Shown here one piece after another: positions 3,001-5,684 of a stretch of 5,684 bases of DNA. The position numbers were made by a program. Numbering within the stretch: the first letter of the stretch is position 1; the number at the start of each line of letters is the position of its first letter. The DNA comes from a virus (taxonomy: Duplodnaviria > Heunggongvirae > Uroviricota > Caudoviricetes), in the IMG/VR virus record IMGVR_UViG_2695420699_000012; one strand, given 5' to 3'.

Positions 3001-5684
3001 GTATCCCTGACTCCCCGACAACTCAGATTTTCAGTATCTGCTGCTATCTAAAGAGAAAGCGCACAAATGCAAGGGTCTTTCATCACGTCCTGTTATTGAT
3101 TGCCTGTGACCTTTTCTTACCTCATGGAACGTTTTTTCAGTTAGAAATATTCATTTTACAACCAGTTCGTATTGTTTATTCATCGACTACTCTCCCCGCG
3201 CCACCTTACGCTTATCTTCTTTAATCTTGAAATAAAGGTTAGTCAGATACGTCAGCAGGCCAAACAGCAGACTCCCCAGCACACCGATTGCCACCCACTG
3301 GGACGGAGAGACTTTGTCCAGCAGCTGCAGTAACCAGTATCCCGTCCCCACCGCTGACGTGGTGTATGACACACCCGTTGTGATTTTTTCCATCTGATGT
3401 ATGTCTCCGTCACCGCCGACAGAAAATGAAAGTAAAGAAAAACAAAAAAACCGCCAGTGTCACCCACTGACGGCCAACTCCGGGAGCCGTGATTATGGCA
3501 TTCAGGCTCTGCTAAAAATGCCAGATAACATTCCGGCCTCCCCTGATTCAGGTTATAAATGACACAATATCTTGACAACACCCGTCACTGTCTGTCAGAA
3601 AATATACCGCCAGGCATAAGTATCATGTGAAATCCAACTATCCTTCTGAGCCAGCACCTCTCCACCGAAAGTCAGTGCTGGCTGTTTTTTTCCTTAATAA
3701 AGCATCTGTAACTGAAACAATCCGCATATTGATAATATATTGACAGGCATCATTGCTGTCTGTGAAAAATAAGTCTCTACAAACATATAAGGCCTTTTAG
3801 CCAGCGTCTTCTTTCAGGTCAGTCGCTGGCTCTTTTTTTATTATGCTGCCGGTGCATTTATCTCCAGCACCAGACTTTCTATCTCAACGCCATACGCTGC
3901 ATTTTTTGTAACATCCGTCAGCGTCAGCGCATTCAGTCCCAGTGTCAGACCGTCTTTTATAACCTGGAATGCCGGGCCAGCCACTCCATTCAGTTTCGGA
4001 GTAACCGTGGCACTGCCGGCGGTGAACACCAGCTCCAGCGTCTGCCAGTCGTTACCGTAATCGCCGAACTCCCCCAGCTTCGTGTTTCCGGCTTTCCTGT
4101 GATGCATCAGATTCACTCTGCCGTCAGTGGTCTGAGTGAAGTACGACATCAGGAACGGATTACCGGTACCCGTCATCGCCACACCATCAGGAACGGGAGC
4201 ATCCGTATACAGATAAATCCCCAGCCCGAACTGATTGTTGGTCAGTGCGCCTGACAGGCGGAACTTACAGGTCAGTCTGCCGCCCTGTGTCAGCAGGGTA
4301 ATTGCGTCATCCACCGGATGCGTCAGGGACCAGGTTTTATTGCTCTGCTTGGTGATCTTAAATACACCATCTGACAACTGAATTCCGCCATCCTTAATGC
4401 TCCAGCCCTGCGCAGCAGCCTCTCCGGCTGCCGGCAGCAGGGAGATTGTGCGAACGGACGTATCTGCAGACGGACCCGATGGCGTGTTGCCGCCGGGCGA
4501 GGGTTTGATTTCCGGTGCCTTACCACTGATGAAGGCTGAGGTGCGCCCGGCTGCGTTCAGAATAGCGGTTGCCAGACGATCCGGAATAATGCTCCTGCGC
4601 GCCCATGAACTGAAATGTGTCGGGCGGTTTGATGATACCTGGTTTCCATTCGTTCTCGATGCCGCACCGTAATATCCTGATGCCGGAATATCCGGATCTT
4701 CTGCCGGCGCGTTAGTGGCGGTATTGACGCCGTTACCGTCTGTCATGAAGGGCACAAAATAAACGCCCTCACTCTCCCTGTTTTTATACCCGCCGTACAC
4801 GGTGTCGTACTGGGTAGCGTATGTATTTTTCCAGTAATACGTCGTGTCACCACAAATCCACGGCACATCTGCAGCACTGCCACCATGGCACTGCGCGTTA
4901 AACACGGAGAGGTCAGCACGAAACTGTGTCAGCATGGCTGTAAACAGCGCAGGTTGCTGTGCGTGGGTGGCGGCGCTCATGTCAAACTCTCCCTGCATCC
5001 AGCACACCGCCAGCAACACATTTTTCGGGTTCTTCTGTAATGCAGCTTTAGTGCGCGCAATCAGGTCCTGATATAACGGTTTACCCACACCCCAGCGTGC
5101 CGAATCCTGGCTGGCCCCCGTGTCCGCACTGAATGTCCCCTCCGCGCCCTGGGTGAATGCCGAACCACCACGACAGCATGGTACCAGCAGGATCCCCGCG
5201 TTATTCGGGATATACGGAAGCAGTTTTTTGGCAATATGTAAGCCCTGGCCGACACAGCCGTACTGCCCTTTGCTCAGGTCTGCCTTCGGATGATTCAGCG
5301 TACTCATATCCTGCACATCATGCAGGCAGTGGTCGGCCGGAATAATATCGTTATATCTGCAGGCAGCCCCACCCGGCGTAACTGTACTGCGGCGCGCCAG
5401 CTGTTTAATGCGCGGATCCGGAGCATCGTATGAATCCGGCAGCGGAAGCCCTTCACCGTAAGCCATGGCATTGGACTGCCCGGCCAGTACGATGACGTAG
5501 TACCAATCCGGCTCAGTTGCACCACTGACCACCACATCACCTTCTGCTGTAATCGCCTGCATCAGGGTATAAGGGGTTATGGCCACCGGACTACCAAACG
5601 GCTGCCAGCCCTCTTTCAGTTTGTGTGTCAGCTTTTCCGCAAGGTCTGACGGCGACGCCGCCCTGACAACATCATAATGTTTAA

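Follow-up and report, generated by a model that had tools for sequence, protein, structure and literature searches.

Based on its gene content, its gene order and comparison with complete Escherichia coli genomes, the analysed viral DNA (IMG/VR record IMGVR_UViG_2695420699_000012, 5,684 nucleotides, hereafter the window) very probably represents part of the late operon, dependent on Q, of a lambda-like E. coli prophage without stx, comprising a nearly full-length nanS-p gene and a regulator of the pchABC type. Lambdoid prophages of E. coli commonly carry nanS-p beside the holin gene S, an arrangement that should not be taken as a Shiga toxin flag; beyond correct annotation, the finding is of little importance. 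All genes of the window except two are located on the minus strand, in the order nanS-p, S, R, a 37-aa open reading frame (ORF), Rz/Rz1 and a PerC-family gene.

The nanS-p ORF enters the window at its right edge (position 5684) and extends on the minus strand to a TAA stop codon at 3841-3843, comprising 613 codons plus 2 nt without an in-frame stop. In relatives, the complete coding sequence has a length of 1851 nt (616 aa, N-terminus MTFKHYDVV) and starts with ATGACATTT (MTF), preceding the KHYDVV with which the window opens. Since the relatives' coding sequence is 1851 nt long, only 7 nt of the window gene, namely the ATG and four further bases, are missing. The statement of the first-pass annotation that the window edge cuts off the 5' end of nanS-p was therefore correct, and the loss could be specified as 7 nt. 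Based on the ORF, Pfam, the PDB search and the alignment to relatives, the feature at 3841..5684 (minus strand, 613 of 616 codons) was annotated as a prophage sialate O-acetylesterase. Mechanically called ORFs overlapping nanS-p were rejected.

The deduced protein consists of a DUF1737 domain (approximately residues 1-55), a NanS-like SASA/SGNH esterase domain (approximately 56-379), a linker and a lectin-like DUF6645 domain (approximately 421-616). All three domains were detected by Pfam above the curated cut-offs, namely DUF1737 (PF08410, E 3e-15, the first three residues being located outside the window), the SASA sialate acetylesterase domain (PF03629, E 1e-12) and DUF6645 (PF20350, E 5e-18), so that the domain search suggested in the first-pass annotation places the protein within the sialate O-acetylesterase family. 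In the PDB search, residues 56-376 matched E. coli NanS/YjhS (3PT5; E 1.4e-121, 56% identity over 321 aa), and residues 418-610 matched the C-terminal domain of NanS-p (6YP6; E 1.3e-29). Moreover, the GQSN motif containing the SGNH nucleophile was found at residues 71-74, and the block IV histidine is part of an RPTH motif at residues 356-359 that aligns with RSSH of the chromosomal NanS. The catalytic role of the GQSN serine and of the block IV histidine is known from the literature, and the RPTH variant was described for prophage 86 (PMC10462455). Over its 613 visible residues, the protein shows 100% identity to WP_053888468.1, annotated as 'SASA family carbohydrate esterase' in E. coli 2013C-4830. 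The ORF and its domain matches are far beyond chance. Domain architecture, catalytic motifs and the gene context on the S side all agree with membership in the NanS-p family, to which the window gene is assigned, and esterase activity is predicted for its product.

The next gene downstream is S (3187..3393, minus strand), encoding a 68-aa class II holin of the phage 21 type (PF04971, E 2e-32; PHROG holin), the exact protein sequence of which was found on at least 1000 contigs. The first-pass annotation placed the esterase directly upstream of S, which is right as gene order because only a non-coding spacer of 447 bp (3394..3840) separates the two genes. Within this spacer, consensus matches to terminators were observed on both strands. 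A predicted terminator-like hairpin with T-run is located just upstream of S on the minus (coding) strand (3475-3449), and two hairpins of the type GCTGGCT plus T7, ending at 3691 and 3839, represent putative plus-strand terminators, of which the scan called the one at 3817-3831.

Downstream of S, R (1966..2499, minus strand) encodes a 177-aa phage lysozyme (PF00959, E 8e-24), which has a hydrophobic N-terminus and is putatively of the SAR-endolysin type. In an exact-protein look-up, the R allele was listed in 10,554 blocks, in common contexts only, and none of ten loci was identical to the window. A low-GC island between S and R harbors a hypothetical ORF of 90 aa in antisense orientation (2659..2931, plus strand; identical to WP_000138558.1, phrog_1853), for which no Pfam match was obtained. 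Just upstream of Rz, a putative membrane protein of 37 aa is encoded (1632..1745, minus strand; WP_000675931.1, phrog_4493), followed by the i-spanin gene Rz (1163..1630, minus strand, 155 aa; PF03245, E 8e-49), in which the o-spanin lipoprotein gene Rz1 is embedded in another frame (1225-1410; PF06085, E 2e-21). Hence, the phage 21-type lysis cassette is complete, with the PF04971 holin, the PF00959 lysozyme, the PF03245 Rz and the embedded PF06085 Rz1 all recognized above curated cut-offs. Neither tRNA genes nor Rfam families (at E up to 0.1) were found within the window.

Beyond an AT-rich stretch that follows Rz/Rz1, a PerC-family regulator of 104 aa is encoded (383..697, minus strand; PF06069, E 4e-44). 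Its exact sequence represents a very common protein carrying the UniRef name 'PchABC family transcriptional regulator'. With its length of 104 aa, its PerC-family domain, its place in the PchABC sequence group and its location on a lambdoid prophage, it corresponds to group 1 Pch (PchA/B/C), and activation of ler is predicted. In EHEC, ler/LEE is activated by group 1 pch genes, which are carried by prophages (PMC6265319); their occurrence on lambdoid prophages has already been described. With regard to the risk posed by the source strain, the relevant visible cargo consists of a pchABC-type regulator, a type that activates the LEE adherence island in EHEC/EPEC, and another copy of an esterase for mucus sialic acids.

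The left end of the window carries a gene of the YlcI/YnfO (DUF3950) family on the plus strand (77..301, 74 aa), supported by Pfam and by relatives. It is preceded by the right end of an IS3-family insertion sequence (1..68, plus strand), which we take to be IS2 from recognition of its terminal sequences. This end is located 8 bp before the ylcI-like start codon and is 100% identical to the IS end in locus L004 (6403-6471). A GTG ORF at 32-301 was rejected as an artefact fusing the IS2 end to ylcI, the real start being at position 77. The IS2-ylcI junction, represented either by window positions 1-160 or by an exact pattern of 46 nt, had no full-length match among complete E. coli genomes, GTDB species representatives, JGI metagenomes or IMG/VR. 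Both ends of the window fall within repeats.

In order to place the window among known elements, the complete RefSeq E. coli genomes (5,426 in total) served as the genome collection. Positions 69-5684 match prophage loci of 2013C-4830, RM14723 and other E. coli strains at 99.8% identity. The stx-negative lambda-like prophage of 2013C-4830 shares YlcI, PerC, Rz/Rz1, the 37-aa ORF, R, the antisense ORF, S and nanS-p with the window, whereas loci of this type differ from it by 11 nucleotides and by the absence of IS2 beside ylcI. Near-identical nanS-p copies were also found in RM14723, H19 and other strains, and a window-like locus, covering at least 80% of the window, is present in 616 of the 5,426 genomes. 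To the left of the locus, relatives encode Nu1, A, W, the portal protein B, the S49 protease C, D, E and FI, and since these are packaging and head genes of the lambda type, the element is regarded as a lambda-like prophage. In all relatives inspected, nanS-p lies between Q and S; in the window, the S side is visible.

The DNA beyond the right edge was judged from relatives only, using 17 window-like loci inspected upstream of nanS-p. None of them carries stx. A small DUF3927 gene is located approximately 0.4 kb upstream of nanS-p in 15 of the loci, 13 of which were also called as having a TerB-family gene, often with an internal stop (pseudogene); beyond these genes, Q usually follows, or otherwise tRNA genes for Ile-Arg-Arg come first. 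Another locus (L022) features ISEc8 and then an IraM-like gene and DUF3927 upstream of nanS-p. The closest relatives (99.8%) all possess DUF3927, the TerB pseudogene and Q. In the unseen right-hand DNA, therefore, a spacer of approximately 0.4 kb would most likely be followed by the small gene for DUF3927 and by one of the TerB family, often a pseudogene; Q, sometimes preceded by Ile/Arg tRNA genes, would come next. A variant of this stx-free reading is the 'empty' Stx-phage-like layout, in which DUF3927/TerB is missing and nanS-p is directly preceded by tRNA genes (Ile-Arg-Arg), a remnant of a DNA methylase and Q. This layout adjoins a window-like lysis region in strain 7_14_47A (L018, 99.4%) and a 99.8% identical nanS-p allele in strain H19 (L021). 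It is nevertheless improbable for the window, being represented by only one of the 17 window-like loci (L018) and by none of the closest relatives.

The first-pass annotation also proposed that the region is of the Stx-phage type and that stx could lie just beyond the right edge. Of the former claim, the gene order holds, as nanS-p, S, R and Rz follow each other as in Stx phages and the nanS-p allele resembles that of Stx1a phages. The order is not specific to such phages, and the conclusion that it implies an Stx-type phage did not stand, given that nanS-p homologues occupy 7,767 places in 2,183 of the 5,426 complete genomes, with up to 14 per genome. The presence of nanS-p in non-Stx prophages and the phage 21-type lysis cassette have both been described before. 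The proposed position of stx is not supported by relatives. In every close relative, nanS-p is preceded by unrelated genes or by Q, without stx, and the alternative that the annotation had left open, i.e., that nothing of this kind lies upstream, turned out to be the appropriate one as judged from these relatives. As none of the close relatives possesses stxAB, and its position lies beyond the window edge, the window was not classed as a late region of an Stx phage.

Chimeric queries, evaluated at a coverage criterion of 80%, extended this analysis to the whole genome collection. The window joined to 2.6 kb of the stx1AB module of an Stx1a phage reached this coverage in none of the 5,426 genomes, i.e., none of the 616 genomes with a window-like locus has the stx1 module joined to it. 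Likewise, S and nanS-p of the window joined to the stx2a module did so in no genome, the best place, a phage-86-like Stx2 prophage, being 75% covered at 91.5% identity. As positive control, the window-like region of a relative together with its real upstream 2.6 kb was recovered at 80% coverage in 88 genomes. A recombinant uniting the window-type lysis region with an stx1 module thus does not occur among the complete genomes, in which the S plus nanS-p type is also never joined to stx2a. Furthermore, three loci were inspected from the top matches to nanS-p alone (99.8-99.9%), and all of them lack stx and show TerB/DUF3927 or tRNA genes upstream. Lambdoid phages are mosaic, for which reason the linkage deduced from S, R, Rz and pch is informative, yet not absolute. 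Taken together, the sequence comparisons leave a very small chance that stx would be found within 3 kb of the right edge; if it did lie there, the element would represent a lambda-head, pch-carrying type of Stx phage absent from the 5,426 complete genomes.

Regarding function, all seven NanS-p enzymes of EDL933 and five of O104:H4 are active on Neu5,9Ac2 (review PMC8065619), and those tested from both strains confer growth on this compound (PMC8065619, PMC10462455). Their genes are located on non-Stx as well as Stx prophages, and induction of nanS-p together with the late genes has been reported (PMC8065619, PMC10462455). Like that of stx, nanS-p expression increases on prophage induction. For the window prophage, transcription of nanS-p would probably start mainly at pR' and depend on Q antitermination, and the predicted hairpin before S could stop transcripts that are not antiterminated, corresponding to a moron-like arrangement. 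NanS-p has no evident export signal, and release at lysis is assumed. The central SGNH/SASA esterase, homologous to the chromosomal NanS, would remove the 9-O-acetyl group from Neu5,9Ac2, activity, regulation and fitness role being transferred from the literature. In this manner, the released enzyme may enable the population to feed on O-acetylated sialic acids of mucus, to the benefit of surviving kin. The C-terminal domain, known as a lectin-like jelly roll, has been proposed to bind carbohydrates.

An additional role may be considered by analogy to the podovirus phi24B, for which a bioRxiv preprint of 2026 described gp84, a NanS-p homologue, as a processed capsid-decoration protein, with its DUF1737 forming hexamers in the central hexons of the T=9 capsid. 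NanS-p of the window type may accordingly dock on a lambda-type T=7 capsid via DUF1737 in addition to acting as a metabolic enzyme released at lysis, although this is considered unlikely. If true, the virion would gain a sialate-deacetylating, mucus-interacting surface. NanS-p proteins of at least 99% aa identity adjoin at least three packaging/head modules, including lambda-type heads, the Stx1a terminase/'prohead protease' module and others. Given these varied head modules and the conservation of DUF1737 (96%), which exceeds that of the rest of the protein, either generic binding to HK97-fold hexons or a relic recombination linker has to be assumed. The presence of stx upstream of nanS-p is less likely still than docking via DUF1737.

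Among known systems, Stx1a-converting phages gave the best matches in the phage collection, which is enriched for Stx phages through deposit bias, and covered only 66-68% of the window. In phages of the H-19B type (e.g., Stx1_14040, BCI49065.1), NanS-p ('yjhS') has the same length of 616 aa and the same three domains and is likewise encoded upstream of a class II holin. Its gene shows 99.6% nucleotide identity to the window (8 differences in 1844 nt) and 99.2% amino acid identity (5 of 616 residues differing), and it lies approximately 0.5 kb downstream of stx1AB, the end of stx1B being about 500 bp away. An origin of the window from such a phage, with stx1AB approximately 0.5 kb past the right edge, would account for these similarities. 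Considering the remaining evidence, it is highly improbable, since a junction of stx1 and nanS-p of this allele type occurs in only 40 genomes, as opposed to 585 records in which the best nanS-p copy is at least 99% identical, and since no genome combines a window-like locus with the stx1 module. In addition, the Stx1a phages have a deviating 3' end of S and only 90-94% identity to the window in R and Rz, and possess an extra 792-bp ORF after S that the window lacks. They carry ant between R and Rz, where the window features 220 bp and the 37-aa ORF, and an HNH/DNase gene next to the terminase in place of pch, whereas the window encodes the PerC/Pch regulator downstream of Rz; neither ant between R and Rz nor an HNH/DNase gene replacing pch was found in the window. 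Their packaging and head module also differs from that of the window's relatives.

The nanS-p alleles of Stx1a phages are as close to the window as those of stx-negative prophages, which means that the gene nearest to the unseen DNA does not discriminate between both groups. Use of the nanS-p allele as a marker of stx linkage was therefore rejected, the differences from Stx1a phages being located in S and beyond. Since nanS-p itself is equally close in both groups, discrimination rests on the far side of the window, namely on S, R and Rz, on the absence of ant and on the PerC gene of the pchABC type. Only neighboring modules, and not the allele, are able to separate Stx1a phages from stx-negative prophages.

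Stx2a phages exhibit stx2AB, nanS-p, S, R and Rz as their standard gene order (PMC10462455), and their NanS-p proteins (933W Z1466/L0105; phi24B gp84, i.e., vb_24B_21) share the three-domain architecture and the late-operon position with the window protein. A derivation of the window from an Stx2-converting phage with stx2AB upstream would fit this order and is extremely improbable, in view of the chimeric query reported above and of the divergence of the protein. NanS-p of the one Stx2a phage compared (L017) has 631 aa, versus 616 aa for the window allele, and is only 61% identical overall, decreasing from 96% in the N-terminal DUF1737 domain to 76% in the esterase and 34% in the C-terminal lectin-like domain. 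In the window protein, the C-terminal domain hence represents a subtype divergent from the Stx2a type, for which the structure 6YP6 was solved. Block IV also differs, reading RPTH in the window and RSSH/RASH in NanS-p of Stx2a phages. The chromosomal NanS (YjhS, 3PT5) is not phage-borne and, unlike the window protein, is devoid of the DUF1737 and lectin-like domains, while both proteins share 56% identity over 321 residues of the SGNH/SASA domain, with the GQSN and H-F-S-S motifs conserved.

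The PerC-family gene (383-697, minus strand, 104 aa) was recognized as the actual visible pathogenicity-relevant cargo of the window. Its exact protein carries the name 'PchABC family transcriptional regulator' and, judged by sequence, belongs to the group 1 Pch proteins, predicted activators of ler/LEE; group 1 Pch members activate ler/LEE in EHEC (PMC6265319). The nearest Stx1a phages lack this PerC-family gene. Furthermore, two conserved mini-ORFs were located on the minus strand, namely one of 46 aa (940-1080, phrog_2157) within the AT-rich DNA that precedes pch and one encoding a putative membrane protein of 37 aa (1632-1745, phrog_4493) immediately upstream of Rz, the latter being present on at least 1000 contigs.

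Among the compared relatives, other arrangements around the sialate O-acetylesterase gene nanS-p were observed. In strains 7_14_47A (10148-11654 of its locus) and H19 (6877-8383), Q is followed by a DNA-methylase remnant, the tRNA genes Ile-Arg-Arg and then directly nanS-p. This upstream layout is fully Stx-phage-like, yet without stx and without DUF3927/TerB, and could represent an 'empty' site or one from which stx was lost. In strain H19, the prophage with this stx-free layout coexists with a genuine Stx1 phage and with a prophage resembling the window. In several genomes (loci L007, L010-L013 and L016, as exemplified by L007 9107-15561), an S-R-Rz-PerC segment 99.4% identical to the window precedes a more divergent copy of nanS-p in inverted orientation, accompanied by an AraC-type HTH gene and Q. 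The opposite side is occupied by ISEc8-like IS66 genes and lambda head genes. These arrangements look like inversions or products of recombination between resident prophages.

Repeated DNA was found at both ends of the window, represented by the right end of an IS element (1-68) and the start of nanS-p (5600-5684). The element, presumably IS2-type (IS3 family) as recognized by its terminal sequences, is entered by the window within its right end and stops at junction 68/69, adjoining the YlcI/YnfO gene ylcI (77-301) 8 bp ahead of the ATG. Reading outward, IS2 could drive a putative expression of ylcI. In strain E2 the same IS occupies a different insertion site, within the YlcI/YnfO gene, and the exact IS2-ylcI junction was not matched in 5,426 complete E. 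coli genomes, IMG/VR, GTDB representatives or JGI metagenomes. At the other end, the first approximately 85-100 nt of nanS-p are almost invariant, even among alleles diverging strongly immediately downstream; nanS-p of L007 differs from the window at 1 position in the window's last 85 nt and at 59 in the adjacent 250 nt. Such ends would be expected of a short-read contig, which, if so, would mean that the source genome carries several nanS-p prophages.

On the protein level, the N-terminal DUF1737 domain of NanS-p (residues 1-55) shares 96% identity with its counterpart in an Stx2a-phage NanS-p, as compared to only 34% for the C-terminal domain. Moreover, the packaging and head modules beside near-identical NanS-p proteins are of at least three different types. 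Both observations, drawn from a comparison with loci L001, L006, L017 and L019-L021, are relevant to a 2026 preprint claiming DUF1737 as a capsid-binding domain.

The spacer between nanS-p and S (3394-3840) contains short imperfect direct repeats spaced by about 133-156 bp, among them two copies of GCTGGCT plus T-run ending at 3691 and 3839. A terminator-like hairpin (3475-3449, coding strand) is additionally placed immediately upstream of S, suggesting that transcription of nanS-p can occur without S in lysogens. Two plus-strand hairpin+T7 elements of this spacer are predicted and would stop transcripts from the low-GC island (2500-3186, approximately 39% GC) between S and R before their antisense entry into nanS-p. 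This island contains an antisense ORF of 90 aa (2659-2931, plus strand; WP_000138558.1, phrog_1853), for which a Pfam search returned no match. Other phages carry either YdfR/DUF1327 or a 792-bp ORF in the S-R interval, or have S directly adjoining R.
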